A stretch of 63,446 nt of DNA, the filler included, from Reclinomonas americana ATCC 50394 (taxonomy: Eukaryota), in the NCBI GenBank assembly GCA_048213135.1. It is 7 parts of one record of this genome, joined end to end, with 100 filler letters (N's around TTAATTAATTAA, not from the genome) between each part and the next. Parts side by side here need not be neighbours in the genome. Positions count along the whole stretch, not along the records: positions 22,090 to 50,400 come from PS015082.1; 6 more parts are not named here. One strand, given 5' to 3'. Shown here piece by piece: positions 12,129 to 58,607 of the stretch. The notes under the pieces were generated by a model, which made no database searches, had not been told where the DNA came from, and worked only from the letters and a program-made list of their open reading frames with translations. The position numbers and the translations under genes were made by a program. Position 1 is the first letter of the stretch, and each line of letters opens with the position of its first letter.

Positions 12129-13004
12129 CTGCGTGTGTCGCCACCAGTCAGTCGGATCATACTCTCTCTCTTTCTCTCTTCACACACNNNNNNNNNNNNN
12201 NNNNNNNNNNNNNNNNNNNNNNNNNNNNNNNNNNNNNNNNNNNNNNNNNNNNNNNNNNNNNNNNNNNNNNNNNNNNNNNNNNNNNNNNNNNNNNNNNNNN
12301 NNNNNNNNNNNNNNNNNNNNNNNNNNNNNNNNNNNNNNNNNNNNNNNNNNNNNNNNNNNNNNNNNNNNNNNNNNNNNNNNNNNNNNNNNNNNNNNNNNNN
12401 NNNNNNNNNNNNNNNNNNNNNNNNNNNNNNNNNNNNNNNNNNNNNNNNNNNNNNNNNNNNNNNNNNNNNNNNNNNNNNNNNNNNNNNNNNNNNNNNNNNN
12501 NNNNNNNNNNNNNNNNNNNNNNNNNNNNNNNNNNNNNNNNNNNNNNNNNNNNNNNNNNNNNNNNNNNNNNNNNNNNNNNNNNNNNNNNNNNNNNNNNNNN
12601 NNNNNNNNNNNNNNNNNNNNNNNNNNNNNNNNNNNNNNNNNNNNNNNNNNNNNNNNNNNNNNNNNNNNNNNNNNNNNNNNNNNNNNNNNNNNNNNNNNNN
12701 NNNNNNNNNNNNNNNNNNNNNNNNNNNNNNNNNNNNNNNNNNNNNNNNNNNNNNNNNNNNNNNNNNNNNNNNNNNNNNNNNNNNNNNNNNNNNNNNNNNN
12801 NNNNNNNNNNNNNNNNNNNNNNNNNNNNNNNNNNNNNNNNNNNNNNNNNNNNNNNNNNNNNNNNNNNNNNNNNNNNNNNNNNNNNNNNNNNNNNNNNNNN
12901 NNNNNNNNNNNNNNNNNNNNNNNNNNNNNNNNNNNNNNNNNNNNNNNNNNNNNNNNNNNNNNNNNNNNNNNNNNNNNNNNNNNNNNNNNNNNNNNNNNNN
13001 NNNN

Positions 13005-18000: not shown

Positions 18001-21000
18001 TGATTCGTGCAGTTGAGGCACATTTGTCGCACCGGTTGAATCACAAACGGGATGCACAGGCGCACACACACCTTCGAGAGGTTCGGCTGGTGACGCACTG
18101 CGCAACTCTTCCGGGATGCGTCGCAGTGCATATCCCTGAGTCGCTGCACCGTCGGCACTCGACGACGACATGGGTGACAGTGGTCCGAGTGACCACATGG
18201 TCTGCACCGGCAGACTGGTGGCGTCCGCATCCCCATCGACAGCGGCACATGCTTCGATAAAGCTGCGCAGTGAGGACCGAACGCGATTGAGGACCGCTCG
18301 CGTCTCGTCGTCCACTTCGTCGCGGTCGTCGACCACATCCAGTGCTCGTCGAATCGCCGCCATGGCATCCTTTCGCTGAGCCGCGTCCTCGGCATCGGGC
18401 GTGCTGGCCACCAAACTTGACAAGACGTCCTCGGCAGAGTGCGCGTACTTGAGCGAGTCCGGGTACGCCTCATACGCGGTGGACAACAGCTCCTCTCGGG
18501 AACGCGGCTCCAGCGGTGCCTCCCACACGAGACTCAGCACACGCGCAAAGGCACGCGCACGCATAATCTCCGACATGGATTCTGCCGACAGGCCGTAGTG
18601 CGTCAGAACTTCGCCAGCCAGAGCATGGTTGCCGCTCGACAGCGCAGAGACGACAAGCGAAATGGGCTTCGAGAGCGCCAATCGCAAAACTCGCTCCACG
18701 TTGGTCGACAACTGAACATGCCAACGGTGCGTGAGAAAAACATGGTCTCCATCCTCGCTCTCTCTCTCTCTCTCATCGGCTCACCTGCGGCGTAAATGTC
18801 AACTTCCACTTGGCTTCGGCAACTTGGTCGGCGAGCAGTTTCAGTCGCTGCTGCAACAATGGTTGCTGCACCTCGTCCGACACCTCGGCCACCACCTGCT
18901 GCAGCACATTGACACACTGCCCGAGACACTCGAGCACGTACGCCACACGATCACGACAGAACACGTGCGTGGCGGCGGCGGCAGTCGACTTGTCCTGCTG
19001 CACGCTGTGGTAGTGCTCGACCACAGCCGCCACCAACAGCGACAAGATGCCCTCCACCACCCAAAACTGCCGATCGGCTGGAAGTAGCGAGAGCAGCTCC
19101 TCCACGCGCTCAAAGAGGTGAGCGTCCGGGTAGTGCCAGCACAGTGTGTACACGTAGAACGACACAAACAGCAATTCATCGCGCTCCTGCAAGAAACGAG
19201 GTCACTCTAAGAAGACAGCACACCGACAATCTCGAGTGACGCGCGGCGTACCAGCGCAGGAATGACTCGGCGCGACTGCTGCACGTGTTGGACGAGTTCA
19301 GCTGGCGGCAAATGCGGCAAATGATCGGCCAGTGCAAAAGCCAAACTGTGCTCGGTGAGCACCGAGCGCAGCCCCTCAACCAGACTGTCGATCTCTTCCG
19401 GATGCTCGCCAGACGCCGAGGTGTGATTCTCCCGAATGAACTGCAGCACGTGCAACTCGGCATACACGTGGTCGCTCTCGCTCAGCAGTCGACGGTGCAA
19501 CGGAGAGAGGCGATCGGTGGCCGGCGGCTGTGCAAAAAGAGTCGCNNNNNNNNNNNNNNNNNNNNNNNNNNNNNNNNNNNNNNNNNNNNNNNNNNNNNNN
19601 NNNNNNNNNNNNNNNNNNNNNNNNNNNNNNNNNNNNNNNNNNNNNNNNNNNNNNNNNNNNNNNNNNNNNNNNNNNNNNNNNNNNNNNNNNNNNNNNNNNN
19701 NNNNNNNNNNNNNNNNNNNNNNNNNNNNNNNNNNNNNNNNNNNNNNNNNNNNNNNNNNNNNNNNNNNNNNNNNNNNNNNNNNNNNNNNNNNNNNNNNNNN
19801 NNNNNNNNNNNNNNNNNNNNNNNNNNNNNNNNNNNNNNNNNNNNNNNNNNNNNNNNNNNNNNNNNNNNNNNNNNNNNNNNNNNNNNNNNNNNNNNNNNNN
19901 NNNNNNNNNNNNNNNNNNNNNNNNNNNNNNNNNNNNNNNNNNNNNNNNNNNNNNNNNNNNNNNNNNNNNNNNNNNNNNNNNNNNNNNNNNNNNNNNNNNN
20001 NNNNNNNNNNNNNNNNNNNNNNNNNNNNNNNNNNNNNNNNNNNNNNNNNNNNNNNNNNNNNNNNNNNNNNNNNNNNNNNNNNNNNNNNNNNNNNNNNNNN
20101 NNNNNNNNNNNNNNNNNNNNNNNNNNNNNNNNNNNNNNNNNNNNNNNNNNNNNNNNNNNNNNNNNNNNNNNNNNNNNNNNNNNNNNNNNNNNNNNNNNNN
20201 NNNNNNNNNNNNNNNNNNNNNNNNNNNNNNNNNNNNNNNNNNNNNNNNNNNNNNNNNNNNNNNNNNNNNNNNNNNNNNNNNNNNNNNNNNNNNNNNNNNN
20301 NNNNNNNNNNNNNNNNNNNNNNNNNNNNNNNNNNNNNNNNNNNNNNNNNNNNNNNNNNNNNNNNNNNNNNNNNNNNNNNNNNNNNNNNNNNNNNNNNNNN
20401 NNNNNNNNNNNNNNNNNNNNNCAAAACACGGCGCCACGGCACACCGTCGCGCATCCATTCGGCAGTCGGTCGCCCACTAGCGTGCGTATCACGCATTGGT
20501 GGAGGTTCAGTCATTGAGCCGCCGCGGTACTCACGCCAGATGGCCAACATGGCCGCCGGCGTCAACCCGAGAATACCCGACAGTTGTTCCAGCAGAGCAG
20601 TCACGCGCTGCGTACCACTCGCCGACGGGAAGCGGATCTGCATGCCCAGTGCAGTGCTGTCAGTGTCAGAGCACAGCACATGGCTGCATACGTGTGAGAC
20701 AAGATGCAGACCTGGTCCTGAAAGTTCTGTGCGAGAATGATGAGCTCGGCCTCCAGTCCCGCCTCCTCCAGCACCCGCGGTGAGAACTCCTGCTGCAGCT
20801 CCGCGTCGCACAGGATCGAATGCAGCAGCGCATAGTCTCGCTTCCGACTGTGCGAACACACCGTGAACAACAACAACAACAACACCAACCATGCAAGGAC
20901 GGAGACAATCGCCAACCTGAGCGTCGAGAAGGCCTCCAGTCGGGCCGCCTTATCGCGACCATGCCTAGCCATCTGCATCATCGCAGCCGTGCGCGGAGTG

Positions 21001-21930: not shown

Positions 21931-22162
21931 GGTCTTGTCTCTCTCGCCCTCTCTCTCTCGTGCTGTGTGTTGATGTCTGACAGCAAGCGNNNNNNNNNNN
22001 NNNNNNNNNNNNNNNNNNNNNNNNNNNNNNNNNTTAATTAATTAANNNNNNNNNNNNNNNNNNNNNNNNNNNNNNNNNNNNNNNNNNNNCTTGTGTTGTG
22101 ATGTGGCACGAGGGGAGAAGGGACGCAGCGGCCTGACACGTGCGTATTGCCCGAACGCACAG

Positions 22163-23591
22163 CAATTCTACACGATTATTCCACACGATTTCGGCAACAA
22201 GATGCCGCCGCCAATCGACAACGAGGAGCTGCTGCAGAAGAAGGTGGCGACAGTGGACTCACTGCTGCAGATGGAGGTCGCCGCGTCGCTGCTCAAGTCC
22301 GACGGCTCTGCTGGTTCGCCGAGTGACACATCGCTCTCCTCGACAACCGTCCCCTCCCGCTGACCTGTGTATTTTTCGTGCCAGGTGGCTCAGAGGCGCT
22401 GCACCCGCTCGACGAGCACTACCAGCAACTGCGCACCGACATTGAGCCGGTGGAACGCAACTCGGAGGAGTGGCAGATGGTGGAGCGCTACGTGCGCCAG
22501 TCACACGGCTCGACGCACTCGCACTTCAAGCTGGCTGTTGCGTCTCACCTCATAGATGCAGTTGTGTGTGTGTTTTCAAGCTCTGATTTGTTGCGCTACA
22601 GCTGGTGGAGGTGTTCCGCATTGCTCGTGAGGGAGAGTCGGATCGGTACACGCCGTGGACCACGCTGCACAACCGCCAGCTGCTCTGGCACGGCTCGGTG
22701 CGCTGCTTCCTTTTTCTTGATGAGCTGCCCTCAGTCGCTCACTCGATGCACTCGTCGCAGCGCCTGACCAACTTTGTCGGCATTCTCAGCCAGGGTCTGC
22801 GAATCGCTCCGCCAGAGGCGCCAGTGACAGGCTACATGGTACGCGCACCTGCTGCAAGTCTTTCTCCGTGCACTGACTCACCTGTCCATTCCTTGTGTCT
22901 GCGCAGTTTGGCAAGGGTGTGTAGCGGCGGCGAAAGGCTCTCATTCTGTGTCGTCGCACTCTTCTCACACGTGATTGATCGTACAGGAATTTATCTCGCC
23001 GATCGCGTGTCGAAGAGTGCGCAGTATTGCTTCGCCCACTCGTTTGACAATCGCGGCCTCTTGCTGCTGGCCGAAGGCGCCCTCGGCAACATGTACGAGT
23101 GCACTCGCGCCAACTCGAGCCTCGCAAAGGCACCGCAGGGCTTCCACTCGACCAAGGGTGAGTATGTGTGTGGACGGCGCGAGTTTGCGAGCGTGATCTC
23201 TCTTGCTGACGCGCGGTGCGACGACGCAGGTGTGGGTCGCGTGCAACCCGACGAGAATACCTCCATCACCCTCCCCGACGGCGTTCTCGTCCCACTGGGC
23301 AAGACCAAGGAGCTGCCGGCATCGAGCACCACGCTGCAGTACAATGTTGCGCATCCATATCTATCGGGTTTTCTCTCGCAGCTTTTCTCACGCGCGCGCG
23401 TCTGTGTCGTGCACCTGCAGGAGTTTTGTCGCCGCCCCGCTTACGGTTCCCCGCCTCCGTCCCCTTTTTTCCATTCTCACCAAGCAATATTTTCGTTTTT
23501 GTGGCACAGATTTATCGTGTACGACATGTCGCAGGTCAAGCTGCGCTACCTGATCGAGCTCGACTTTACTGGCCAGGCGCGCCTGCTCTAA
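22163..23591 (+). CDS. PARP: Poly(ADP-ribose) polymerase, PARP1/2 type (regulatory + catalytic domains; 5' part lost at linker)
   Basis: Spliced product: FYTIIPHDFG..HNRQLLWHGS|RLTNFVGILSQGLRIAPPEAPVTGYM|FGK G|IYLADRVSKSAQYC..ALGNMYE..HSTKG..LQYN|E|FIVYDMSQVKLRYL. The H-Y-E triad is complete only if micro-exons 22907-22916 and 23421-23422 are used. Confidence 0.95.
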
Positions 23592-24279: not shown

Positions 24280-25830
24280 TTCGCGACTGCAAGATTTCCC
24301 AGGTCTGACAAAGGTGCCGCCAAGTAGAGGACATGGTGCCGTTTCAAATGGACCCCCGTCTTGACACTTGGAAATCGACCGTTCTGTTTCTGTGCAAGAA
24401 ACTAATGAATTTGATCGAACGGAAAGGGGTCCACGATTTTGCAGCTGTCTGAACTCGCGACTGGACGACTGTTGCGGNNNNNNNNNNNNNNNNNNNNNNN
24501 NNNNNNNNNNNNNNNNNNNNNNNNNNNNNNNNNNNNNNNNNNNNNNNNNNNNNNNNNNNNNNNNNNNNNNNNNNNNNNNNNNNNNNNNNNNNNNNNNNNN
24601 NNNNNNNNNNNNNNNNNNNNNNNNNNNNNNNNNNNNNNNNNNNNNNNNNNNNNNNNNNNNNNNNNNNNNNNNNNNNNNNNNNNNNNNNNNNNNNNNNNNN
24701 NNNNNNNNNNNNNNNNNNNNNNNNNNNNNNNNNNNNNNNNNNNNNNNNNNNNNNNNNNNNNNNNNNNNNNNNNNNNNNNNNNNNNNNNNNNNNNNNNNNN
24801 NNNNNNNNNNNNNNNNNNNNNNNNNNNNNNNNNNNNNNNNNNNNNNNNNNNNNNNNNNNNNNNNNNNNNNNNNNNNNNNNNNNNNNNNNNNNNNNNNNNN
24901 NNNNNNNNNNNNNNNNNNNNNNNNNNNNNNNNNNNNNNNNNNNNNNNNNNNNNNNNNNNNNNNNNNNNNNNNNNNNNNNNNNNNNNNNNNNNNNNNNNNN
25001 NNNNNNNNNNNNNNNNNNNNNNNNNNNNNNNNNNNNNNNNNNNNNNNNNNNNNNNNNNNNNNNNNNNNNNNNNNNNNNNNNNNNNNNNNNNNNNNNNNNN
25101 NNNNNNNNNNNNNNNNNNNNNNNNNNNNNNNNNNNNNNNNNNNNNNNNNNNNNNNGCATAAGCGTGGTTGACCAGTGGATTTGACGCAACCATTCTATGC
25201 AAGGGTTAGTAAGGCTTCCAACGGACCCCCATCTTGACCCTTGGAAATCAATCGTTGTGCCTGTACATGGAAAACTACGGAATTTTGACCGCAGAGGGGG
25301 TCCACGGGTTCGTAGTCAGCCGAACTCGTGACTGCAAGATTTCCCAGGTCGGACAAAGGTGCCGCCAAGTAGAGGACATGGTGCCGTTTCAAATGGACCC
25401 CCGTCTTGACACTTGGAAATCGACCGTTCTGTTTCTGTGCAAGAAACCAATGAATTTGATCAAATTGACAAGGGGTCCACGATTTTGCCGTCATCGAAAC
25501 TCGCGACTGGACAACTGTTGCGGTCTGTTACATGTACCATTCTATGCAAGAGTCAGTGAGGCTTCCAATGGACCCCCATCTTGAACCTCGGAAACCATCG
25601 TTGTGTCTGTACGCGGGGAACCATGGAATTTTGACCGAATTGACAAGGGGTCCATGATTTTGCCGTCATCAAAACTCGCGACTGAACGGTTTTCGTGGTG
25701 CGTTGCAGGTATCAATTTGTAGGAGACATGGTGGTGTTTCCAATGGACCCCCGTCTTGGCACTTGAAACCCAACAGTTCTGCTTGTACGCGGAGAAGAAA
25801 GGAATTTCGACCGAAAAGGGGGTCCGAACC
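24280..25830. repeat. ~175-bp satellite-like tandem repeat with A/B dimer structure and internal inverted repeats, spanning a gap
   Basis: The YGGACCCCC core recurs at 24349, 25222, 25394, 25569 and 25744, each followed ~75-80 nt later by GGGGTCC. 24281-24477 is nearly identical to 25326-25523. Confidence 0.85.
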
Positions 25831-27878: not shown

Positions 27879-28248
27879 AGGGAAAAAAACAACAGGCGGC
27901 CCAGACGCTCTGAGTGAACAATCAAACCAATATGCACTTCTTCCTTCTCACATAACACAGAATTCCACTNNNNNNNNNNNNNNNNNNNNNNNNNNNNNNN
28001 NNNNNNNNNNNNNNNNNNNNNNNNNNNNNNNNNNNNNNNNNNNNNNNNNNNNNNNNNNNNNNNNNNNNNNNNNNNNNNNNNNNNNNNNNNNNNNNNNNNN
28101 NNNNNNNNNNNNNNNNNNNNNNNNNNNNNNNNNNNNNNNNNNNNNNNNNNNNNNNNNNNNNNNNNNNNNACCCAACTTTTTTTGAGTGTGACAAACAAAA
28201 AGTCAGCAAAGAGGCAAAAGACTGTGCATGACAACAAGCAAGCGCAAC

Positions 28249-30290
28249 TCCACGCTTCAGGCACTCGCGAGAGACGGCCGGCATGAGGGTGGGAATGTAG
28301 GTCAGCACCGGGATAATGGGCGAATCGCGGTCACCAATGACCATGAAGCCCATCTCGATCAGGCGATCGCGGAAGTAGTTGGAGTTCTCCTTCAGCGCAT
28401 GAATGCGCTTCACACCGTCATCGGTGCCGTCCTCGCCGATAATGACCTCCAGAGCCGACAGCGCCATGCGCGCGCAGCCCGGCGCCATCTGGCACGAGTA
28501 CACCGAACCAAACGTGGTGCGGCGGAGGTAGTCGATCAGCTCGTGAGATCCCGCAATGTAGCCGCCCACCGAGCCGAAAGACTTGGTGAAGGTGCCCATG
28601 AGAATGTCCACGTCCTTCGGCTCCACACCGTGGTACTCGCACACTCCGCGGCCGCTGTGACCAATGGCACCAATGCTGTGCGCCTCGTCCACGTACAGGT
28701 AGCACTGCGGATGCGAGTCAGCAGGAGAACGGGGAGAAGAGTGTGCAGACAGGCAAACACACACACACACACACACACCTTGTACTTCTTCTTGATGGCA
28801 ACCACTGCAGGCAGGTCCACAATGTGGCCCTCCATCGAGTAAATGCCCTCCACCAGAATCCAAATGCGCTCCCACGGGCGGTGCGTGCGCGGCTGGCCCT
28901 CGACAATGCTCTCGCGAATGACGCGCTCCAAATCCTTCACATCTGTGTTGCATGAAGAAGAAGAAAAGAAAACACCGCATTGAGAAAATTGGTCCACGCG
29001 TCACGTGTCTGTGTCGCGATGCGTACAAACCTCCGTGCTTGAAGACGCGAATCTTGGCCGCACCTCCGCGGGCGCCGACCACCAACGAGGCGTGATTGAG
29101 GGAGTCGGAGATAATCAGAGTGCCCTTCGGTGCGAGCGCCGGAAGCACAGTCGAGTTGGTCGCAAAGCCCATGCCTGCACACCACCAAAAAGTTCGAACC
29201 CAGTCAGTCGTCCAATAACCGGAGCCACGTGTGTGTGGGTCCGTGAATGCAGCAGTCGACGACATGCAACGCACCGAAAATCATGGCTGCCTCCTTGCCC
29301 ACAAACGACGCAATCTTGCGCTCCAGCTCGCGGTGCACATCCGTGTAGCCCAAATCGCAGCTGGCACCGCACGTCGACACGCCCAAGTCATAGATCGAGC
29401 GCTCCACGTCGTCAATGCACTTGCCACCGGTCTGTGCAAAGCCCAGGTAGTTGTACGAGCCGAGATTGATCACTCCGCGGTGCACCTGTCCCTCCACGAC
29501 CCTGCAAAAAACAATCATGCATGTATGCATTGAGTCGCTTGCAGAAAACAGCAGAAAGCTGCGGCAAAGAGGCGAAACTTGAAGGTCTTGAAGTTGTCCT
29601 TGGACTCGCGCACCATCACATCGAAACGCGCACCAGGCACCGACTGGATGGGTCTACGCAAACGCACGATCAGCACAAAACGCAAGACATGTCGCGCTTT
29701 GAAAGGACGGAGAGAAAAGACGCACCGGTTCCAGCAGTCCTGAATGCGGTGGTACCTGAGAGGTGTGAGGGACACAGAGGGAGACGGTGTCAGCGAAAGA
29801 GACAAGGAGAGGGTGAGCCGCTCAAAAGCAACGCAACAGGTTGCGGCAGTAAAAGTCCTGCACACACACACACACGGAGAAGCAAGTATGCAGTTAGTGC
29901 AATGATGCAACGACACGCATGAGGCAACAGGCAGAGCAAGAAAGGGAGGGAGAGGGAGGGACGGGAAAACAAAACGACAGACATGTCCGCGTGTGTTTGG
30001 GAGCGTGATCAACGGCCGTCACATGCACTTGAGCGATACCACGCACGATCGCCGTCACACACGCACGTGCTCACGCAACGAATGCAAACACGCGGAGCGA
30101 GAGAGCAAGACAAAGAGAGAACGAGAGAACAAAGAGAGAGCAGGCAAGGATGCTCGTGGAAATGGCGGCTCGCAAGAACAGCGGAGAAGTGCGCGGAGTA
30201 CGGGCTCACCTCAAAGTCCGACACCAGTGGGCAGTAACCCGGTGGCGCCACATTAGTCCGGCGACGCAGGATCTTGCGAGCAAAATCCTG
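28249..30290 (-). CDS. LCB2: Serine palmitoyltransferase catalytic subunit LCB2/SPTLC2 (partial)
   Basis: Motifs [79 protein letters not shown] and the PLP-lysine motif MGTFTKSFG. Confidence 0.95.
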
Positions 30291-30990
30291 ACACGCAAAA
30301 GTGTGTGTTNNNNNNNNNNNNNNNNNNNNNNNNNNNNNNNNNNNNNNNNNNNNNNNNNNNNNNNNNNNNNNNNNNNNNNNNNNNNNNNNNNNNNNNNNNN
30401 NNNNNNNNNNNNNNNNNNNNNNNNNNNNNNNNNNNNNNNNNNNNNNNNNNNNNNNNNNNNNNNNNNNNNNNNNNNNNNNNNNNNNNNNNNNNNNNNNNNN
30501 NNNNNNNNNNNNNNNNNNNNNNNNNNNNNNNNNNNNNNNNNNNNNNNNNNNNNNNNNNNNNNNNNNNNNNNNNNNNNNNNNNNNNNNNNNNNNNNNNNNN
30601 NNNNNNNNNNNNNNNNNNNNNNNNNNNNNNNNNNNNNNNNNNNNNNNNNNNNNNNNNNNNNNNNNNNNNNNNNNNNNNNNNNNNNNNNNNNNNNNNNNNN
30701 NNNNNNNNNNNNNNNNNNNNNNNNNNNNNNNNNNNNNNNNNNNNNNNNNNNNNNNNNNNNNNNNNNNNNNNNNNNNNNNNNNNNNNNNNNNNNNNNNNNN
30801 NNNNNNNNNNNNNNNNNNNNNNNNNNNNNNNNNNNNNNNNNNNNNNNNNNNNNNNNNNNNNNNNNNNNNNNNNNNNNNNNNNNNNNNNNNNNNNNNNNNN
30901 NNNNNNNNNNNNNNNNNGAATGTCTTCACACGCAAACCAGAGACAAGTTGACACGTGTGCTGACAACTCGACCTCACTCGTCACTCACTC

Positions 30991-31490: not shown

Positions 31491-33118
31491 ATGGAGGAGG
31501 TGCGTGCGACACACACACATGCACAACAGTGTCATGACTCGCACTGCTGCGCATGTTCTTCCGCGTGTGTGCGCCTGTGTGTTGGCATGACGATCGACAT
31601 GGCACACAAACTGCTTCTTCCTCTCTCTCTCTCGCTCTCTTTCTCTCTTCCAGTCCTCTATCAATGTTCATGCCACACACCTGTCTCTTTCCCTCTCCTT
31701 CGCATCACTTGTGCTTTTTTTTCGCTGGATTCGTCGCGCATCGCATCGAAAAGTTCTCACTCTCTTCGCATTTTTTTCTGCGCAGATTGTGCACTTGCTG
31801 AACACGGAAGTGGTGGATCGCCTGATTCTGGGTGTCGAGCCGAACCCGGCCAACACTCCGCTCTCGTTCGACTACTCGGTGTGGCGCCAGGCGGCGCTCA
31901 TTTGGTCGCTGATCACCTTTGGCGGCTACATTGTTTGTTGCGTCAATTGCCTGGTCCTGCCTCCCTCTCATCTGCCTCTTGTCACTCACGCACCCCATGT
32001 GCGTTAGATTTCATCTTCTGCACCCTGTCGTACCTGTGGACGTTCAAGCTGTACAAGAACTACTACTTCCCGCAGGGTCTGGTGGTGCCGTGGAGCCAGC
32101 TCGGCAGCGAGATCTTCCTCTCCTGCTGGTCGATTCCCATCATGGGCTTGCTGACGGTGCCGCTGGAGGTACGCGTCTCTCTTCGTCGTTGTCGTTGTGT
32201 GCCGACTGCCAACTCACCTGCATCGGCAGCTGCTGGTGCTGTACGGCTACACCAATGTTTACTTTAATGTGTCGGACTACGGCATGGCGTACATGTTTGT
32301 GTCGCCGGTGCTGTTCCTCATCTTTACCGACTCGCTGATCTACTGGATCCACCGCGGCCTGCACGACATCCCGTGGCTCTACAACAACATCCACAAGCCG
32401 CACCACACCTTCAAGGAGGTGACGCCGTTCTCGGCCTTGTCGTTCCACCCGGTCGACGGCTGGGCGCAGGGTCTCCCCTACCACCTCTTCGTGATGGTGT
32501 TCCCGTTCCACTCGTACATGTACTTTGGCGCCCTCCTCGTCGTCAACATGTGGACCATCAACATCCACGATCGTTGGTCACTCGACATCCCCGCCGTCAA
32601 CGGTGCTTCGCATCACGACATTCACCACCGCAAGGTATGTGCGCGCGCTCCCAATAGTGTGCTGATCTCCTGTTCCAGTTGCTCACTCTCTTGTCCCTCC
32701 CCCCTCGCAGTATGTCGTTGCGTACAATGCGTCAACCTGCTGCTCGCACCCGTGCTTCCCCCTCATTGCTCACCTCTCTCTGCTCGTGTCATCTCATCGC
32801 CATGCACACCAGTACAACGTTGCGTCTCACTCACATTGGTTTGTTTGTCAAGCGTCGCGCCACTGACCCTTCCCTTCCCTCTCCCCCTACGCAGTATGGC
32901 CAGGTGCTGTCGCCCTCCCTCTGTTCTCTCACCCCAGCCTCTCATCTCACATTCACACACTTGCTCAGTACTTGACCTTCTGGGACAAGGTCTGCGGCAC
33001 GTTCCTCGACCCGGCGGTGCAGGCGGCCAAGGATGCCGAGGAGGAGAAGAAGTGGGGCAAGCGCTCCGGCTCGGTCTCCACAGGTGCCGGCAAGAAGAGC
33101 ACCATCAAGGCGGCGTAA
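31491..33118 (+). CDS. ERG3: C-5 sterol desaturase (ERG3/SC5D family)
   Basis: His boxes YWIHRGLH, IHKPHH, SFHPVDG, NIHD and HHDIHH, then YV|YN|YGQ|YLTFWDKVCGT from micro-exons 32711-32716, 32813-32818 and 32895-32903. Stop TAA at 33116-33118. Confidence 0.93.
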
Positions 33119-33323
33119 TGGAACTGGCGAAGGATTGTTATTGTTTTTTTGTTTTCTCCTCCCAAGAGTAAGTGTGTGCACAGTCACTGTCTGTGTGATT
33201 CTTTCCCCGTTCAACGTACGGAGAAGTGAAGACGCATGACAAAGGCGGTGACGGCATCCATACGTACACAAACACAGCTTATTTAATTGTATTGCTTTGA
33301 CTGCTCTCTCATGATTAACAATG

Positions 33324-41455: not shown

Positions 41456-42119
41456 NNNNNNNNNNNNNNNNNNNNNNNNNNNNNNNNNNNNNNNNNNNNN
41501 NNNNNNNNNNNNNNNNNNNNNNNNNNNNNNNNNNNNNNNNNNNNNNNNNNNNNNNNNNNNNNNNNNNNNNNNNNNNNNNNNNNNNNNNNNNNNNNNNNNN
41601 NNNNNNNNNNNNNNNNNNNNNNNNNNNNNNNNNNNNNNNNNNNNNNNNNNNNNNNNNNNNNNNNNNNNNNNNNNNNNNNNNNNNNNNNNNNNNNNNNNNN
41701 NNNNNNNNNNNNNNNNNNNNNNNNNNNNNNNNNNNNNNNNNNNNNNNNNNNNNNNNNNNNNNNNNNNNNNNNNNNNNNNNNNNNNNNNNNNNNNNNNNNN
41801 NNNNNNNNNNNNNNNNNNNNNNNNNNNNNNNNNNNNNNNNNNNNNNNNNNNNNNNNNNNNNNNNNNNNNNNNNNNNNNNNNNNNNNNNNNNNNNNNNNNN
41901 NNNNNNNNNNNNNNNNNNNNNNNNNNNNNNNNNNNNNNNNNNNNNNNNNNNNNNNNNNNNNNNNNNNNNNNNNNNNNNNNNNNNNNNNNNNNNNNNNNNN
42001 NNNNNNNNNNNNNNNNNNNNNNNNNGCAAGCGTGAATCGTGAAGCCCTCATTCTTTTTGGTACACAAGAATTCTTCATTTACAACAACACCATCACCATC
42101 ACCACAGCAGTGTCGAGTG

Positions 42120-43442
42120 TCACCGCAGACCAATCACACCACCCATGGCCAGTGTGGCACCCTGCCGATCCACACCCTGGAAAATTGCGCCCTTCAAGTT
42201 GGCACCCTGACAACGACGAAAGAGCGTCGTGAGTACACAGCGTATGAGTGAGCGAGCAGGTTGGGGCACACGCACCCGCAGATCCGAATCGCGCAAGTCC
42301 ACGTCACGGATGATGGCGTAGGAGAGATTGGCGTTGGAGAGGTCCACGTTGCGCAGAATGGCATTGGTCAGCGTGCAGTACGACAAGTCGGCATTCTTCA
42401 TAATGGCACCCGTAAAGTCGGCGGCACAAGCGTCGGCACGGCACAGCGACGCTCCGGTCAGATCGGCACCCGTGAGCTTGGCACTGTTCAAACGGAATGA
42501 GACGAGAAGGAGAAGTGAAGAGCGGGGTGAACACGCACCTGGTGAGCAAGCTGTGCGACATGTTGGCGCCGCGCAGCGAGGCCGCCACCAGCTGCGTCGA
42601 GTGCATCTTGGCGCGGTGAAAGTTGATGCCCGACAGATCCAGATCGTTGAGCACCAGCGTGTTGAAGCAGATGCCCTGGAAGCGCAGTGGCGTGCCCGAT
42701 GTGGTGCTCATGATGCTCTGCAGGAGAGTCAGCCACACAGCCACACACAGCGATAGCACACCAGGCGCAGCGCAACTCGAACCACATCCTCGCGAGTGAC
42801 CTCCGGCTCCCGCTGCGAATTCGGCAGCGTGGCCTGTCGCGCCTCGGCAGCCTCGTCGGCATCGAGCATGCGCTGCACCGCTTGCTCCAACTGGCGGAAA
42901 CACGAGCCGTGGTGAGCAACCCCAGAAGCAAGAGCGCCAGAAACAAAAGACCAGCACGCACTGTTTCGACCCCGAAATACTGCGCCTCACGGAGGAGACC
43001 ACGAGTGGAGGTGCCCTTGTCGAGTCGCACCTCGCCCGTGCGCAAAAACGACAGGATCACATCAAAGTAGCGTGGATCTGTGGACGACGATCATCAGCGT
43101 GCCTGTGTGGCGATGCACACGCACGCACGCACGCACGCACCGCGATCAAACAGAATGCGTCCCTTGTCATCGCGCGAAAACGGGATGGAGCAGCTGTCCG
43201 AGGCGCCACTGTCGAGCTCAGCCAGATTGCGGAAGAGCGCGGAGCTGTCGTCCACAAGCAGAGTGGATCGCGTGGTGCAAAAGTACTCGCCGCCCACGTT
43301 GAAGTGAATCCACTGTGTGCAGGTGTGCGTAAGAGAGAGAGAGAGAGATGTGGAGATGCGGAAGACCGCAGCGCACCTCTGAATCGTCGGACGATGAGCG
43401 TGTGGGGGACTTGGAGGAGGCAGCGGTTTCGGCGGCACTCAT
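42120..43442 (-). CDS. KCTD9: KCTD9-like BTB/POZ + pentapeptide-repeat protein
   Basis: WIHFNVGGEYFCTTRSTL, ILFDR|DPRYFDVILSFLRTG, LLREAQYFG, LRFQGI..DLSGINF, then A(D/N)LxxA pentapeptide repeats. Confidence 0.9.
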
Positions 43443-43838: not shown

Positions 43839-46800
43839 ATGGCCGACGAACAGAGTGCCGCCGCTGCCGCTGCACCTTCCGAGCCGCCCAGTCGTAGTTC
43901 TCTGCGTCCGCCTCCGCTCTTCCTGCGACCTCCGCTTGAACCGCTGACGCATCTTCCCGTCGCAGTTGCGCAGCGCTCAGCTTCTTTGCAGTTCGCATTG
44001 TTTTTCTCCTGCTGATTGCCTTGTCTCTCTCTGTTTGCAGCAGCACGACCCGAACGACGAGTCGGAAGACGACGAGGCCGATGAGGGCGACGACGGCGAG
44101 GAAGGCGAGGAGGGCGATGTGTTGATCGATGAAGAATGGGCGCGAACAGTGGCCTCCATGATTGAGATCTACGTGCAAGACTCGGATCTCACGCGCCCCG
44201 AGTCGGCGACGCGACGGCACAACGTCCCCGGACCGTGGATCGATCTGATCATGGCCTTTACTGAACTTGGCGGACTTTCCGAGGTGTGTGTCATGCATGC
44301 ATGCAAGCAGTCTGATCATTCACGTGGATCCACTCATGGATGAGGCGCGAGGGTAGTTTGTGAACGAGGAGAGTCGCGCGGTGCGTGGACTGTATCGGTA
44401 CTTGCGGCGCCTGTTCTCCACGTCGCCAACCGTCGAGTTCAAGCGATGTGGCGATGGGCCGGATCGAGTGCGCCGACGCGCTGTTTCTCGTTCGTGTTTT
44501 GTGCCCCTGTCTCTTTCTGTGGTGTGACGCTCATCGCTGCGTGCTTGCTTGCGGGCTGGGTGCAGAGGAGATTTTGATGCGACTGGAGGAGCTCTTTTTG
44601 TTGCTCCCGCGACCGGAGACCGCCATGGCGCCGGTCGACGAGGAGCCTCCGCGTGACGACGTGGATCTGCAGCGTCAGGACGACGAGGCAGCGTCGCTGA
44701 TGGTGGCCAGCTGGCTCAGTCGTGTGTTGCACCCTCCCGCCACCTATCCAGTGCTCGAGAGCGCGCGACTGGAGCATCCGCTCGGCTACGTGCCGATTCG
44801 TCTCGTGTTTGGTGCGTGTGTGCGGGAAATGAGAGCGACTCTGTGTGTGGCACTCACGTGCGTCTTGCAGCCGAGTGTCCACTCATTCAGCAGGCCTGCA
44901 TCAAGGCCGCCTCCACGACACCGGCTGCGGGCGATCCACTGGCGGCCAAGCTCAAGCGCACCAACAGCGCCGGCTCGTCCTCCAGTGGCGGCAGCAGCAG
45001 CGGCGGTAGTGGCAGCGGCAGTGGTGCTGTCGATGCCGCCGAGCACTACCTCATGTGGCTCATCGAGCGACAGCGACTCCGCGACGCCGGCTTCCTGCAG
45101 CTCGACGGAAGCTCACGTTCGCTGTACACGATCTCGCTGCATGAGCAGCTGTCGCGTCTCATTGTTCACATGTTTCACCCGGCCACCTTGCTCAAGGTGA
45201 CTGTGCTTTCCTCGTCACTGTGTTGTGTCTGCCTGCTGACCTGTTGCTGCATGACGCACGCAGCACACCACGTTGATGGCTGTCTGTGATCACCACCAGG
45301 GCAGTGCGCCGGTAAGTAGGAGCCACACTCCGCGTCGTTGACGCCGACTGACGTTCTTCCCCAACCACAGATTGAAGAGTTCGCCAAGATGCGCCGAGTG
45401 GTGCACGCGCTGCGTCACTTGCCTCGCGAGCTGTGGCTTTCTCGTATTGTTGCGTTGTCGCCACCTCATTCCATGCATTGCGGTGACTGACAGGAGACGG
45501 ATGGTAGGCCACTGCCGCCTCGCTGTGCCCTTCGATGGAGCTCGTGAGCGATGAATCCGGTCGGCAGCTGATCCGCGGCTACAAGGGCGATGCGTACATC
45601 CTGCGCCACCTGCAGGTGTGGTTCTCCGACGAATTCCTGCTGAGCCAGGACGGCCAGCTGTTGCGGACGCTGCTGGAGGAGGACGGCTCGGTGCCCATCG
45701 AAGTCATGTGCGGTTTTGACGCGTTTCGCGAAGAGCACATTTCAGCGGAGCAAGTTGTCGAAGCCATTCGCGGCCAGCCCAAGTTGCACAAGCTCAAGCT
45801 CACCAGAGAACGAGACGCGGTACAGCGCAAGACTCCGTTCAAACTGCAGACGGTGCCAAAGACGCCCGACGAGGTGGTTCGCATCGAATGGGGTGCCGCG
45901 GAGCCGATGCATCTGGTGTGTGTTGGGAATGAGATGCATGGTGCGGAGTTGTGAACTCACTGTCGCGCAGGATGTCGCACCGAGTGAGTCTGCTGCCATA
46001 TCGCCCATGTCACCGCTGCCCAGCGAGGGTCTGCCGCGTGACGAGCTCCTGAGCAAGGTGCGTCGCCGCATTGAATTCTGGCTCTCGGATCGGCATCTGG
46101 CGCTGGATGTAGTTGCGTCGCGCGGCATTGAGCGCCTCCTCAGCCGAGTGTGGAGGGCGGCCTGTGTTCAAACCCCTGTGTCCTTGTCAGTACCTGTCCT
46201 CGTTCCTGTACTCGTCTGGCGACGGATCCATCGGTATCTACGAGTTGCTCGGCTATCCTCCGCTGCTAGCGTGGCTGGCCGAGTACTCTGGTGTGTGATC
46301 ACGAGCCAGCTCCTGCTCTTGCCGAAGTGACTGAGATTCGATGGTCTTCTGACAGAGCGCACCACTATTATCCGCGAGGCTCTTCTCGAGTCGTCGGCGG
46401 TCGAGGTGTCACCGGACGGCATGCAGTTGCGGCGCGTCGACCTGCTGCCCGAGCTGCGTCGCGTGGTGCTGTTTGGCCCACTGGAAAATGCACGAGCGCT
46501 GATCGGCCACTCGAGTGCACTGCAAGCAAGTCAAGGTACAGTACAACTTTGTGTTCTCCGCACCTCTCCAGTCTCTCTCTCACACGTCAGCACGTGTGTG
46601 CTTGTGTGGCAGGCGCATCGTTCACCATGATGACGTACAACATTCTGGCCGAGTCGCTGTGCTCACCCACGTGGTATCCATACGCCGATCCATCATGTGC
46701 GCGACGAGCGTGCGTTGCTGCGCAGCGAGTGGTCTGTCGCTCATTGTGTTTTTTCTGTGACGCAGCTCTCGACTGGGAGAATCGTCGATGGGCGGTTCGG

Positions 46801-48377
46801 TGTGTGACTGCATTCTTGCATATGTTGTGACTGCTGTCCATTCCTCACGCCGTTCTACAGTCGCGAAATTCTGTTCTACGAGCCCGACATTCTCTGCCTG
46901 CAAGGTGAGAACGAAGAGAGAGGTCAACAACAAAAAGGCCATTGTGGTTGACTGTCATTGCAGAGATCCAAGCGCCCGGCAAGTGGGAGCAAGTGAGTCT
47001 CGATATCGTGCTGTATGCACTCCGTGCTTCGCCTCCCTCAACTCGTGTTCGTTCAGGGAGAGCATCCGTCGATCAATCATGCGCACTGGATGTTTAGGAC
47101 GCTGAGTGCTGCCGGCTACCGCGGTCGCTATTGCAGGAAGCGCGGCCGCAACGGACTAGTCATCCAGGAGCATGAGCCAGTGATCGGCAACATGCTGCTG
47201 TGGTTCGTCGGTACAGTGGTGGCAATGGTGGTGATGATGGCTGGATGACTGATCGTTGTATTCTGTCGCAGGAAGGACTCGGTGTTTGAGTTGGTCTCCA
47301 CACACTTCTTCAGCATGGTGCGTCTCCGCCGTCAGTCGATGCACAAGAGTGAGACGTGTGTCGTTTACATGTTGCGCGCAGGCCGATGCGGTCTACGAAC
47401 TGGCCACCGATCCGACTGTGAAGCGCACCATCGGCAAGGGACACACGCAGGTCGCGGTGTTTGCCGTGCTGCGCCATCGTGAACGTGGTGACCTCGTGCT
47501 GGCCGGCTCGACGCACATTTCGGCCAACTGGAAGCAGTCGTACATGCAGATGCGGCAGATGATTGTGTTGAGTCGCGAGATACACAGACTGCAGGGCGAG
47601 ATCAGTGCGCAAATCGGGCACCCGATTCCGGTGGTGCTCGGTGGCGACTTTAATGTGACACCAAACTGCGCCATGTACGGCTACTTGCGTCACGGTGCGT
47701 GGGGCCGTCCCTTCCCGCACAACTTGCATGATATGATGACTGCTCAACCGTTTCTCTTTGCAGGATTTGTGCCTCCGGATCACCCGCTGGTGACAGCCGC
47801 CGCCGACGGGTGCGCGGCGTCCGTTCTCGACTCGACCACTGGTGGATTTGTGAATCCTCGGCCGCTCCGCAGTGCCATGGAGACAGTGATCGGCACCGAG
47901 CCGCATGTGACGAACTTTACCGTGGAATGTTGCGTCTGTTGCCACACGATAAGTGCACTCTTTCCAGTTACTCATTCACTCTGTGGCCTTATTCACCAGA
48001 TCGCGGCACGCTTGACTACGTTGCGTCATTATTTCCTCATGTTGGCAGTGTGCGTTTCATGCCTTTCTCACGGTACCCCTCTGGCATGCAGTTGTTCTAC
48101 ACCGAGCCACTCATGCCGCTGGCGGTGCTCGACGTGCCCTCTGTGCAGACTCTATCAAAGGAAAACGGGTGTGTGCTTGCACGTTTTGTCAGTGTGACTC
48201 CGTCTTCGCCTGACTGCTTCTGCCCAGTGGCCTTCCCAACTCGCGTTTCCCAAGTGACCATCTTCCAGTTTTTGTTGCGTCGTCCACCGCTGACTCTCGC
48301 TTCTCGTGTCGCATACTAACAGCTTGCATTGTCGTTGTTGTACACAGGCGCGTTTCAGATTTCCGCCGCACTGGTGA
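43839..48377 (+). CDS. Protein with La-motif (winged-helix)-like domains fused to a CCR4/Angel/nocturnin-type EEP nuclease/phosphatase
   Basis: La-like ILRHLQVWFSDEFL..DGSVPIEVMCGF..VQRKTP and VRRRIEFWLSDRHLALD..DGSIGIYELLGY..EVSPDGMQLRR. EEP motifs TMMTYNILAESL, LDWENRR, PDILCLQE, THI, LGGDFN, TNFT..GTLDYLFY and FPSDHLP. Stop TGA at 48375-48377. Confidence 0.8.
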
Positions 48378-48559: not shown

Positions 48560-50507
48560 TCAAAAGCTCAGCTCGCGGTCTACGAGTCCCTCCGCATTCC
48601 ACTGCTGATAATCGCCATCCTCCACCGATTCGTCCTCCATGGCCATACGGTCGTACTCGACACGTGCAAACTTCTCCCAGTCACTGCGCACGACGGTGAT
48701 GAGGACACAATCTCGCACGTGAGAGAGAGAAGATATAAACCTCAGAGTGTTGCTCTGGTTCTCCTGGTACACCAGGAACGGATCGCGGGTCTCGAAGGAC
48801 AGGAACTTGTTGAGGTTGGTGAAGGTATTGATAAACACGTCGGCTTGCTTGCATCGCTTGAGGTCGGAAATGTAAATGGCGGTAATGTCCACTGGCTTCA
48901 CCATGTCCAACCTGAGCGCACGACCACCACTGGCGGTGAGCATCGCGTGGAGCAAAGGTTTCGCGACAGACACACACGCAAACACGCAACATTTGACACA
49001 AAATGTCGTCAAAGGTGACAATCTCGGCCGCCAGATTCTCCATGCGCGTCAGCTGCTCCGAGTACAGGTACTCGAGCTCGTACGCGGAGAGAAGACCATC
49101 ATTGTCAATGTCCATGATACGGAACCAGTACTCGAGCGCCGTCGGCGACGTCTTGTCCTCCTCGGCAACGCAGAACCCTGCTCATCGCGGCATGAGAGAG
49201 ACGAGAGGAGCGGCTCGACCTTTGCGACAGGGGAACGCAACAGATAAAATCGCGATATGACATCATGCCACGACGCTCGCACAGGAATCGTCTCGGCGCC
49301 TGATCAAAGATGCGATCCACCACACGCGACGTTAGTGCGTAGTTGCTGTACGCGGAGAACTCCTGCACACATTCACACATACACAGTGAGCCAGTGTGGT
49401 CTACACCTGCGCTGTCATCATCATCATCGTCGCAACTTCCTTGTTGATCATGAAATCGTGGTCGTGATCGAGCTCCCAGAACTTGCAGTAGAGCACATAA
49501 AAGTGCTCGTACGAGAAGAAATCCATGATCTGGCACACACACAGTTCCAACGTCAGCCTAATCCCCCCACAAGCTGCATGAACTGTATTGTGGCGCAAGC
49601 ACACCTGATTAATGTCGTCTTCGGTGTCCAGCTTTTGCAGGGTGGCCAGCAGTTTTGAGTTCTTGAAGCTCTTGAAGTCTATTGCCTCCAGGTTGGTGCG
49701 ATCGAGAACGTAGAATATCCGTTCGACCACCGTCTCGGCTGTGTGCGCGTGACAGGTGAGCGTTACGTGCTCCGCCATTCCCCGCCACTCGACTCGACTC
49801 ACCGTATCGTTCTTGGAATTCGGGCGTCTGCTTGAGGAACTCGAGGCCCGGATGTCGTTCGAGAACCTCTGCAGAGACGAAACAGCGGGTGAGACCACAA
49901 CATCAGGCAGGTAGCATTGTGTCGCGAGCACGAGACCTTGTACCAAGTCGACAAATCCACTGCGAACAATAGTCTTGCCAGTGGGAGCACGGAAAATATT
50001 GTACACCTGACGCGCCTCCTCGTTGCCGGAGAGTTCACGCTGCCAGTACCGCAAAAACGACTCGAGGGTCACGGTGCCGGTGCCTGTCGTGTCCACTCGC
50101 CGGAAAAGTGTTCGATTTACATACGATGGCAGCTTCAGCACGTCTCGTGTCACGCGCAGCAGGCCCACTTCTTGCAGTGCGTTGCTGCTGAGACCAAATG
50201 CACTCCGAAGGCGAGCCTACATGGATACACCACCTGCCATCAGCATTCGAGAACCGGGAGAGTGTGTGGCGAGGCCTCCCACTTACCGGCACATCGCCAT
50301 CTTGTGTCCGCACCGGTGGAGGCTTGGGCTTGTAGAACGAGGGAATGATCTGCGTGCTGGCATGTGAGACACAGAAAGCCAGAGACTCTCTCTCTCTCTC
50401 NNNNNNNNNNNNNNNNNNNNNNNNNNNNNNNNNNNNNNNNNNNNTTAATTAATTAANNNNNNNNNNNNNNNNNNNNNNNNNNNNNNNNNNNNNNNNNNNN
50501 TTACTTA

Positions 50508-52266: not shown

Positions 52267-52423
52267 GGAGATCACCCCTCTCTTTCTCACACACACGCCG
52301 CGAAGACCGGTGGGAGTGGCGCANNNNNNNNNNNNNNNNNNNNNNNNNNNNNNNNNNNNNNNNNNNNTTAATTAATTAANNNNNNNNNNNNNNNNNNNNN
52401 NNNNNNNNNNNNNNNNNNNNNNN

Positions 52424-52888: not shown

Positions 52889-53505
52889 NNNNNNNNNNNN
52901 NNNNNNNNNNNNNNNNNNNNNNNNNNNNNNNNNNNNNNNNNNNNNNNNNNNNNNNNNNNNNNNNNNNNNNNNNNNNNNNNNNNNNNNNNNNNNNNNNNNN
53001 NNNNNNNNNNNNNNNNNNNNNNNNNNNNNNNNNNNNNNNNNNNNNNNNNNNNNNNNNNNNNNNNNNNNNNNNNNNNNNNNNNNNNNNNNNNNNNNNNNNN
53101 NNNNNNNNNNNNNNNNNNNNNNNNNNNNNNNNNNNNNNNNNNNNNNNNNNNNNNNNNNNNNNNNNNNNNNNNNNNNNNNNNNNNNNNNNNNNNNNNNNNN
53201 NNNNNNNNNNNNNNNNNNNNNNNNNNNNNNNNNNNNNNNNNNNNNNNNNNNNNNNNNNNNNNNNNNNNNNNNNNNNNNNNNNNNNNNNNNNNNNNNNNNN
53301 NNNNNNNNNNNNNNNNNNNNNNNNNNNNNNNNNNNNNNNNNNNNNNNNNNNNNNNNNNNNNNNNNNNNNNNNNNNNNNNNNNNNNNNNNNNNNNNNNNNN
53401 NNNNNNNNNNNNNNNNNNNNNNNNNNNNNNNNNNNNNNNNNNNNNNNNNNNNNNNNNNNNNNNNNNNNNNNNNNNNNNNNNNNNNNNNNNNNNNNNNNNN
53501 NNNNN

Positions 53506-57354: not shown

Positions 57355-57464
57355 CGTTTCTGTGNNNNNNNNNNNNNNNNNNNNNNNNNNNNNNNNNNNN
57401 NNNNNNNNTTAATTAATTAANNNNNNNNNNNNNNNNNNNNNNNNNNNNNNNNNNNNNNNNNNNN

Positions 57465-57598: not shown

Positions 57599-58607
57599 TG
57601 TGAACACACACACGGGCGGGGCGAGTCAGCTTCGGNNNNNNNNNNNNNNNNNNNNNNNNNNNNNNNNNNNNNNNNNNNNNNNNNNNNNNNNNNNNNNNNN
57701 NNNNNNNNNNNNNNNNNNNNNNNNNNNNNNNNNNNNNNNNNNNNNNNNNNNNNNNNNNNNNNNNNNNNNNNNNNNNNNNNNNNNNNNNNNNNNNNNNNNN
57801 NNNNNNNNNNNNNNNNNNNNNNNNNNNNNNNNNNNNNNNNNNNNNNNNNNNNNNNNNNNNNNNNNNNNNNNNNNNNNNNNNNNNNNNNNNNNNNNNNNNN
57901 NNNNNNNNNNNNNNNNNNNNNNNNNNNNNNNNNNNNNNNNNNNNNNNNNNNNNNNNNNNNNNNNNNNNNNNNNNNNNNNNNNNNNNNNNNNNNNNNNNNN
58001 NNNNNNNNNNNNNNNNNNNNNNNNNNNNNNNNNNNNNNNNNNNNNNNNNNNNNNNNNNNNNNNNNNNNNNNNNNNNNNNNNNNNNNNNNNNNNNNNNNNN
58101 NNNNNNNNNNNNNNNNNNNNNNNNNNNNNNNNNNNNNNNNNNNNNNNNNNNNNNNNNNNNNNNNNNNNNNNNNNNNNNNNNNNNNNNNNNNNNNNNNNNN
58201 NNNNNNNNNNNNNNNNNNNNTCGAATCATGCTCACTCTTTTTCGTTCGTCTGCAGCGGCTGTGTGGCGTACTGAGATCTCTTCTCTCGTCTTCTGTCGCC
58301 TCTTGTATGTGTTGATGATTGTCGATGAATTTTCATTTGAGACTTATCTTATATTGCTTCCCATTGTTGCGTGGGAGCGGACGAGTTTCCCCGCTTTCTT
58401 CTTGCGTGTGGGGTGTTTGTGCATGTGTGGCGTATTCTTGTGCACTTGTGTCGCTTGTGTGTGCGCACGTGCGTTGTTGCTGTGTTTGTGTGTTTGTGTG
58501 CAACATGCCCGCTGCGCTCATGGCGATGCCCGACATCGCGCTCACGTTTTTTTCTTCCCCTGTGCCTCTTTGTGTGCGTCACTCATCGTGCAGTCGTACG
58601 GAACGCA

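Follow-up and report, generated by a model that had tools for sequence, protein, structure and literature searches.

The genomic window analysed here (63,446 nucleotides of Reclinomonas americana ATCC 50394, assembly GCA_048213135.1) carries at 43839-48377, on the forward strand, a predicted gene whose product joins three tandem La motifs to a CCR4-type EEP domain. La motifs are winged-helix binders of single-stranded RNA 3′ ends; to our knowledge, it is exceptional for a protein to have more than one of them, and an RRM is the usual partner. CCR4-type nucleases, for their part, normally rely on partner proteins for targeting. The La motifs, the EEP domain, the indications that both belong to a single chain, and the homologues together show that this architecture is real and conserved but rare. 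Judging from the sequence, we consider it rather probable that the protein is a self-targeting RNA 3′-end enzyme independent of CCR4-NOT, in which the La array would tether the RNA and the EEP domain would shorten or remodel its end.

La motifs and EEP domain of the predicted protein

We built a La profile from 14 segments of homologues that pass the Pfam thresholds, with the window protein excluded, and ran it with E-values for a single sequence. It matches three segments of the window protein, motifs C, D, and E, which are also recovered by hhalign (Table 1). None of 2,000 locally shuffled N-termini reached 10 bits (the maximum was 5.3), and the linker used as a control in hhalign gave 0.3%. 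These results support the presence of three tandem La motifs N-terminal to the EEP domain. Motifs D and E are the two segments that the initial annotation had described as clear La motifs (around 45580-45880 and 46040-46450), and motif C is one that it had listed as possible (around 45130-45400); profile and hhalign bear out all three. The other possible motif, near 44140-44280 (candidate A, ~44131-44482), is not supported, and neither is candidate B (~44676-44917), which was picked out by eye. With the family La profile, both have scores under 0 bits. They gave 3.4% and 8.4% in hhalign and stayed unrecovered when the profile was iterated with the window's own motifs included; only fragments of the types ‘GYVPIRLVF’ and ‘VEF..DG..VRRR’ match La.

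The curated Pfam models were run on unspliced pieces (14 exon translations, E ≤ 10), in which motifs C and E are split by introns. Motif D matches the Pfam La model (PF05383) with 19.5 bits (E 9.3e-4, profile positions 2-58 of 59), under the threshold of 37.1. Stop-to-stop open reading frames (ORFs) gave only the same two weak matches, to La and Exo_endo_phos. The La assignment thus holds for C, D, and E with the homologue-built profile and falls short of the Pfam threshold on exon 8, the exon of motif D. In the PDB, all five sequence matches of exon 8 are to human La (best E 0.017, with the whole La motif aligned). Its AlphaFold2 (AF2) model has a mean predicted local distance difference test (pLDDT) score of 74.7, and the first 18 PDB rows listed by Foldseek (ranks 1-19) are all La-motif structures, including human La, Slr1, LARP7, LARP1, LARP6, the La domain of a c-Mpl-binding protein, and 1s29 (modest best E of 3.9e-3, template modelling [TM] score on target up to 0.77). 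Motif D is therefore predicted to adopt the La-motif fold, an elaborated winged helix, and the structure prediction agrees with the reading first made from the sequence. A word-indexed search of exon 8 against longer proteins gave no match at E ≤ 0.01. We found no RRM after any La motif in the 14 exon translations, and no DM15 by Pfam in these translations, in the homologues with La and EEP, or in the metagenome ORF L001.

In human La, six residues make the main contacts with RNA (Q20, Y23, Y24, D33, F35, and F55, as given in the accessible part of PMC6439165), and Asp33 hydrogen-bonds the 2′- and 3′-OH of the last nucleotide (accessible part of PMC2430598). The residues at these positions of motifs C, D, and E are given in Table 1. 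Motifs D and E retain the Asp at the D33 position, as do 14 of 16 modules of the homologues.

The EEP domain matches a family EEP profile made from homologues with 461 bits, over positions 2-343 of 350, and aligns with 11 homologues without insertions or deletions at the exon joints. Its largest exon alone scores 15.6 bits against Exo_endo_phos (PF03372; E 0.014, cut-off 24.5), and the spliced protein matches proteins that pass PF03372 in blastp with E-values of 1e-90 to 1e-30. The conserved active-site residues of the CCR4 family are Asn, Glu, His, Asp, Asn, Asp, and His, and its enzymes are Mg2+-dependent 3′-5′ exoribonucleases or related phosphoesterases (PMC6158716, from the text available). 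We assigned these positions by motif alignment with the homologues (YNIL, CLQE, STHI, GDFN, LDY, and PSDH), and all seven residues are kept: N686, E731, H849, D893, N895, D969, and H1007, the last adjoined by D1006. The domain is thus complete, as the initial annotation had proposed, and its active-site residues are intact. The LRR that it had named as a usual partner is indeed absent, both from the window's exon translations at E ≤ 10 and, by Pfam, from the homologues with La and EEP.

Motif E is followed by a short linker (Table 1) whose ‘PE.RR.V’ stretch recurs in the consensus of the family, where one Pro (P363 of the homologue P0002) is invariant, and aligns with the homologue P0037. In P0037, the residues after the last La motif (~455-465) read ‘...RRxxxxPE.RR.V.FG’, which resembles the end of the La motif in human La, ‘RR..KPLPE’ (PDB alignment); AF2 places a short strand at 460-462. 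To us, this stretch and its counterpart at 46454-46519 are also reminiscent of the first strand of the RRM1 that follows the La motif. The linker stretch may be what is left of an ancestral La module.

From splice junctions predicted in the DNA, the locus reads as a single intron-rich eukaryotic gene for a protein of 1,020 residues. The model was built from stop-to-stop frames and every frame-keeping GT..AG intron between neighbouring open segments. It begins with an ATG at 43839, ends with a TGA at 48375-48377, and has no in-frame stop across 23 exons; the 22 introns, all GT-AG, are 55-79 nt long (median 68). The GC content of the exons by codon position is 0.66/0.46/0.73, and that of the introns 0.55 overall. 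Comparison of the spliced model with the homologues revealed no gaps at exon joints, and the alignment of motif C is gap-free over three proposed introns, which supports those junctions. No N run or contig linker lies within the gene (43839-48377). Both flanking genes are on the reverse strand, which is consistent with the proposed gene limits. The least certain parts of the model are the start codon and the junction of exons 1 and 2; exon 1 has a weak coding bias, with a GC content at third codon positions (GC3) of 0.55. A first model of 22 exons and 1,044 residues was rejected on alignment with P0037, since it contained a 24-residue insertion after ‘LDY’ that is seen in no homologue. Removing the in-frame intron at 48020-48091 restores ‘LDYLFYTE’, which matches the aligned ‘LDYIFYT’. 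An alternative acceptor at 45493 for the junction of exons 7 and 8 was also rejected, by our own reading, because it leads to a stop.

The intron donors are of forms unusual for GT-AG introns: GTTGCG in six, GTGTGT in five, GTGCGT or GTGCGC in four, and GTTCGT in two. The usual GTRAG form occurs in only 3 of the 22 (GTAAGT, GTGAGA, and GTGAGT), whereas 20 of the 22 introns have G or T at position +3. The acceptors are CAG (20) or TAG (2), and the introns are poor in A (224 of 1,476 nt). The initial annotation had speculated on a link between the protein, U6 3′-end maturation, and odd splicing. This finds no backing here: all introns are GT-AG, if with unusual donors, and the search of the whole window with Rfam gave no RNA-gene match, so nothing ties the locus to U6 or to another known RNA.

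Table 1. Features of the predicted gene and of its neighbours, in window coordinates. Pocket positions are those equivalent to Q20, Y23, Y24, D33, F35, and F55 of human La.
Feature	Residues	Position	Strand	Remarks
N-terminal region	~336 residues	43839-45130	+	acidic low-complexity, Gly/Ser-rich stretch, two La-like remnants
La motif C	337-417	45131-45558	+	exons 5-8; 23.2 bits, hhalign 93.7%; pocket L,H,M,H,T,M (0/6 kept)
La motif D	431-511	45598-45840	+	wholly in exon 8; 19.6 bits, hhalign 95.6%; pocket H,V,W,D,Q,F (2 identical, at D33 and F55 positions, and one aromatic swap)
La motif E	563-649	46049-46453	+	exons 9-11, adjoins EEP; 35.7 bits, hhalign 98.0%; pocket R,F,W,D,Y,Y (Asp kept, all four aromatic positions aromatic)
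Linker from motif E to EEP		46454-46519	+	carries LLPELRRVVLFG
CCR4-type EEP domain	672-1020	46520-48374	+	13 exons
Exons 1-6		43839-43964, 44041-44283, 44357-44489, 44566-44811, 44871-45196, 45264-45311	+	
Exons 7-12		45371-45448, 45508-45915, 45971-46111, 46191-46290, 46356-46535, 46613-46696	+	
Exons 13-18		46766-46799, 46861-46904, 46964-46992, 47057-47202, 47272-47317, 47382-47694	+	
Exons 19-23		47764-47928, 48000-48019, 48092-48168, 48228-48273, 48348-48377	+	
In-frame intron		48020-48091	+	72 nt, GTTGCG..CAG, within EEP domain; easily misread as coding
Upstream neighbour		42120-43090	-	BTB_2 and pentapeptide-repeat protein
Downstream neighbour		48681-50216	-	EF-hand_13 / EF-hand protein; by eye like a PP2A B''-type regulatory subunit

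Homologues and phylogeny of the EEP domain

We searched 1.84 billion representative sequences with HMMER, using the largest EEP exon as the query (E ≤ 1e-3), and found 35 proteins, with a best identity of 41%. All were scanned with Pfam, and seven exceed the curated thresholds for La as well as for Exo_endo_phos (P0002, P0006, P0009, P0014, P0023, P0024, and P0030); P0002 reaches 124 bits for Pfam La over three stretches. Evidence that the domains belong to one chain comes from alignments that span both. The window protein and P0037 form a single high-scoring segment pair in blastp (221-1040 against 106-824, E 1e-90, 28% identity over 832 columns), which spans the three La motifs, the linker, and the EEP domain. 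The protein P0009, which has 475 residues with one La motif and an EEP domain, aligns with residues 565-1043 (E 3e-71); both alignments are numbered on the first model of 1,044 residues. By our own reading, the helix and strand order of La recurs four times in the predicted structure of P0037. Several homologues lie on contigs barely longer than the coding sequence (e.g., 778 residues on 2,416 nt), and these contigs are therefore probably transcripts.

Genomic relatives with a single ORF were found in metagenomes. Among the best 80 of 263 related loci, in which we ran the La profile on all 1,463 ORFs of at least 120 residues, the only ORFs with La are L001 and L002, each with three La modules and then EEP in an uninterrupted frame of 688 residues. 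Pfam assigned 15 of the locus ORFs as follows: La and EEP in one (L001), zf-C6H2 and EEP in two, EEP with an unassigned N-terminus in 11, and no match in one. The two zf-C6H2 forms (L004:304-2175 and L034:3-2105) have a MYND-like, mRNA-binding finger at the N-terminus of a CCR4-type EEP domain. A large set of near-identical marine-metagenome loci (L009-L080) has EEP preceded by an unassigned region of ~250 residues. Another unusual fusion related to RNA ends is P0025, among the 35 nearest proteins (461 residues), in which EEP is followed by WW and then NUDIX.

The family has typically three La motifs (range one to three), and Pfam reported no RRM in the homologues with La and EEP (E ≤ 0.01) or in L001 (E ≤ 0.001). 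The single segment pair with P0037, the conserved domain order, and the single ORFs of L001 and L002 bear out the proposal, made from the sequence alone, of La and a CCR4-type EEP domain in one polypeptide. The architecture is rare, but not unique to this genome, since it is present in at least nine other public sequences (7 of the 35 nearest EEP representatives and the two metagenome ORFs). The sources listed for the clusters with La and EEP are Logan, ENA, and JGI/IMG, none being NCBI or UniRef, and two of the proteins are named ‘Ccr4’ in the JGI annotation. In word-indexed searches, P0002 retrieved itself and one plant CCR4 homologue among the matches listed, and the family alignment retrieved, likewise among the matches listed, one further partial sequence (P0032). 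The large clusters of the ESM Atlas nearest to P0002 are EEP-only (score 0.86), which is weak evidence and does not imply absence of the architecture; a query there with the part of P0037 that holds its La motifs returned no named match of use, which again does not imply absence.

We inferred a maximum likelihood tree of 29 EEP domains. It leaves out 20 of 49 sequences with less than 80% coverage of the EEP profile, including P0023 (La and EEP) and P0040 (plant). Near-duplicates (P0002, P0038, and P0039), low-complexity sequences (P0007 and P0015), and P0036 (65 residues) had been removed before the search. All nine rows with La and EEP are on one side of the best-supported split (99/96), with the zf-C6H2 forms on the other, and the window protein pairs with P0037 (97/93). 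The La-less rows on the La-bearing side consist of two fragments and eight sequences with N-terminal regions of 25 to ~560 residues that give no La match. Their presence indicates that the La array was repeatedly lost, or is beyond recognition, in some members.

Proposed function and its alternatives

In the function that we propose, the La motifs would hold single-stranded 3′-terminal RNA, the best candidate being motif E, which adjoins the enzyme, with motif D as a possible second. Tethering would keep the RNA close to the EEP active site, and the EEP domain would then shorten or remodel the 3′ end, most likely by 3′-5′ removal of A- or U-tails. In targeting, the La array would stand in for the LRR/CAF1/NOT scaffold or the zinc fingers of other CCR4-type enzymes, and, having no LRR domain, the protein would act outside the CCR4-NOT complex. 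The initial annotation had already suggested a self-targeting 3′-end processing enzyme; that suggestion was drawn from domain content, and RNA binding, substrate, and exonuclease chemistry likewise remain predictions for the window protein.

Several points weigh against this proposal. In genuine La, binding of the La motif protects 3′ ends from exonucleases, and the proposal would require such an end to pass from a shielding La pocket to a nuclease site. The La motifs of the window protein score only 20-36 bits with the La profile, against 55-109 for those of the homologues; Gln20 is lost in C, D, and E, and the pocket is eroded. On unspliced pieces of the window, the curated Pfam thresholds are reached neither for La nor for Exo_endo_phos, and every splice junction, like the transcription of the gene, is a prediction. 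The first ~336 residues lie outside the domain-based account. Of the 19 rows that make up the La-bearing side of the tree, 10 have no detectable La module. Lastly, the substrate does not follow from an intact CCR4-type active site: titles of PDB entries describe nocturnin with bound NADPH and ANGEL2 as a 2′,3′-cyclic phosphatase, and nocturnin did not degrade poly(A) in vitro (PMC6158716, in the text available).

The last of these points leads to the alternative that survives best, in which the architecture is the same and the chemistry differs. The EEP domain would be an ANGEL2-like 2′,3′-cyclic phosphatase, a PDE12-like 2′,5′-phosphodiesterase, or a nocturnin-like small-molecule phosphatase. 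In the cyclic-phosphatase version, it would make a 3′-OH end to be bound by the adjoining La motifs; the La pocket requires a free 2′,3′-diol, which fits such a capture of the product (accessible part of PMC2430598). The seven active-site residues are the same in CCR4, nocturnin, PDE12, and ANGEL2 (available text of PMC6158716), so that the sequence cannot settle the substrate. The largest EEP exon has its best match in PDE12 (E 0.0014), followed by yeast Ccr4 (0.029) and ANGEL2 (0.095). In Foldseek, the model of P0037 (pLDDT 75.9) is closest to CNOT6L (TM 0.88 on target), with nocturnin, PDE12, and ANGEL2 close behind. The full-length homologues, however, are clearly nearest to yeast Ccr4 (134.6 bits for P0009 and 117.5 for P0037), then to PDE12, CNOT6/6L, nocturnin, and ANGEL2 (67.8 and 48.4 bits for the last), and we identified no feature specific to ANGEL2 or nocturnin. 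We regard a different chemistry as rather unlikely, if deserving attention.

In this lineage, the La array could also have decayed and no longer read 3′ ends; it would then serve as a generic scaffold that binds RNA or protein, N-terminal to what would be an ordinary CCR4-like deadenylase. This would account for the low scores of the window's modules relative to those of the homologues, for the loss of all six pocket residues in motif C and of Gln20 in all three motifs, for units A and B being beyond recognition, and for the relatives on the same side of the tree that have no La module at all. Decay of the array fits poorly, however, with the retention in motifs D and E of the Asp that binds the terminal ribose, with the aromatic residues at all four aromatic pocket positions of motif E, with the conserved linker between motif E and the EEP domain, and with the La fold predicted for motif D. 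We judge it distinctly unlikely. That the splicing model joined neighbouring La-repeat and CCR4-like genes, or a pseudogene, is very improbable: every junction is predicted and exon 1 is weakly biased, but only a 77-nt GT-AG intron lies between the first EEP exon and the one that carries the linker together with the last La motif, the linker and domain order are conserved in transcript-sized contigs and single-ORF genomic homologues, the 23 exons contain no stops, and both flanking genes are on the other strand.

Returning to the self-targeting 3′-end enzyme, we suggest, tentatively and with more doubt than belief, that it belongs to a hitherto unrecognised sixth La-related branch of ‘La-array nucleases’, in which tandem La motifs devoid of an RRM would feed a free 3′ end to the attached CCR4-type exonuclease. 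If this is true, enzymes that trim oligo(U) or oligo(A) tails independently of CCR4-NOT would exist in several microbial eukaryotes that are poorly sampled, and the La motif, which protects 3′ ends in genuine La, would here bring them to be trimmed. The compact P0009, with its one La motif and EEP domain, would be a convenient experimental system.

Genomic surroundings and comparison with known systems

The remainder of the window holds other ORF pieces with matches to a PARP catalytic domain (22587-23591, forward strand), a fatty-acid hydroxylase (32155-33171, forward), a class I/II aminotransferase (28170-29280, reverse), and Kelch repeats (1-1578, reverse). At six places (7426-7525, 14831-14930, 21990-22089, 50401-50500, 52324-52423, and 57365-57464), the sequence TTAATTAATTAA is flanked on each side by 44 N. 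This 12-mer has stops in all six frames, and we take the six N-flanked copies to be contig linkers; simple repeats adjoin several of them: (TACG)n, (AG)n, (CT)n, (CA)n, and (TG)n. Such linkers point to a draft assembly made of scaffolds, in which the pieces on either side of a TTAATTAATTAA point would not be certain neighbours. Long N runs are found at 3125-3476, 10152-10929, 12188-13004, 19546-20421, 24478-25155, 27970-28169, 30310-30917, 41456-42025, 52889-53505, and 57636-58220, and amount with the linkers to 6,629 N. They produce apparent islands of low GC content and ORFs open in all six frames; the ‘AT-rich islands’ of the composition profile were rejected for this reason, being N runs and not real AT-rich DNA.

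La and EEP are known families, and their combination was not found as a described architecture in the searchable literature: the full-text search revealed no protein with La and EEP and no description of tandem or multiple La motifs. The initial annotation, which knew of no such fusion, is upheld in this respect. A survey of LARPs covers 345 proteins of 135 species in five families, and the words nuclease, CCR4, and phosphatase are absent from the part of it that is accessible (PMC7928011). Being conserved, rare, and absent from that part of the survey, the architecture would extend the catalogues of both LARPs and deadenylases. The fusion also raises the questions of whether a La motif, rather than shielding a 3′ end, can pass it on to an enzyme, and of whether a CCR4-like enzyme can target itself without CCR4-NOT.

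Among the known systems, Ccr4, CNOT6, and CNOT6L share the EEP subfamily of the window protein, the homologues being nearest to yeast Ccr4 in sequence and to CNOT6L in fold. The LRR domain of Ccr4 docks the enzyme on Caf1. Unlike these proteins, the window protein has no LRR that we could find, and its N-terminus is an array of La motifs; with this array in place of the LRR, it is unlikely to be a subunit of CCR4-NOT. PDE12, nocturnin, ANGEL1/2, and the plant-type CCR4 with zf-C6H2 resemble it in having, N-terminal to a CCR4-type EEP domain, a module specific to the lineage, which in L004 and L034 is another nucleic-acid-binding module, and differ in that none has a La motif.

On the La side, LARP1 and the solo-La proteins (yeast Slf1/Sro9 and S. 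pombe Slr1) also have a La motif without an adjacent canonical RRM, and the structures of the LARP1 La motif with oligo(A) or oligo(U), as well as the La motif of Slr1, are among the fold matches of exon 8. The window protein differs from them by its lack of DM15, its several La motifs, and the enzyme to which they are covalently joined. The accessible text of PMC7928011 takes up solo La motifs, and there the alveolate proteins with a La motif and DUF3223 give a precedent for a La partner other than an RRM; these have a single La motif and a different partner domain that is not known to be catalytic. Genuine La and LARP7 are nearest in sequence to the La motifs of the family, and the Asp that reads the diol is kept. 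In contrast to them, the family has no RRM after the La motif, and its motifs are in tandem, typically three. Reading and protecting RNA 3′ ends is the known role of La motifs, and in genuine La binding shields the end, whereas the array described here would present it to a nuclease.

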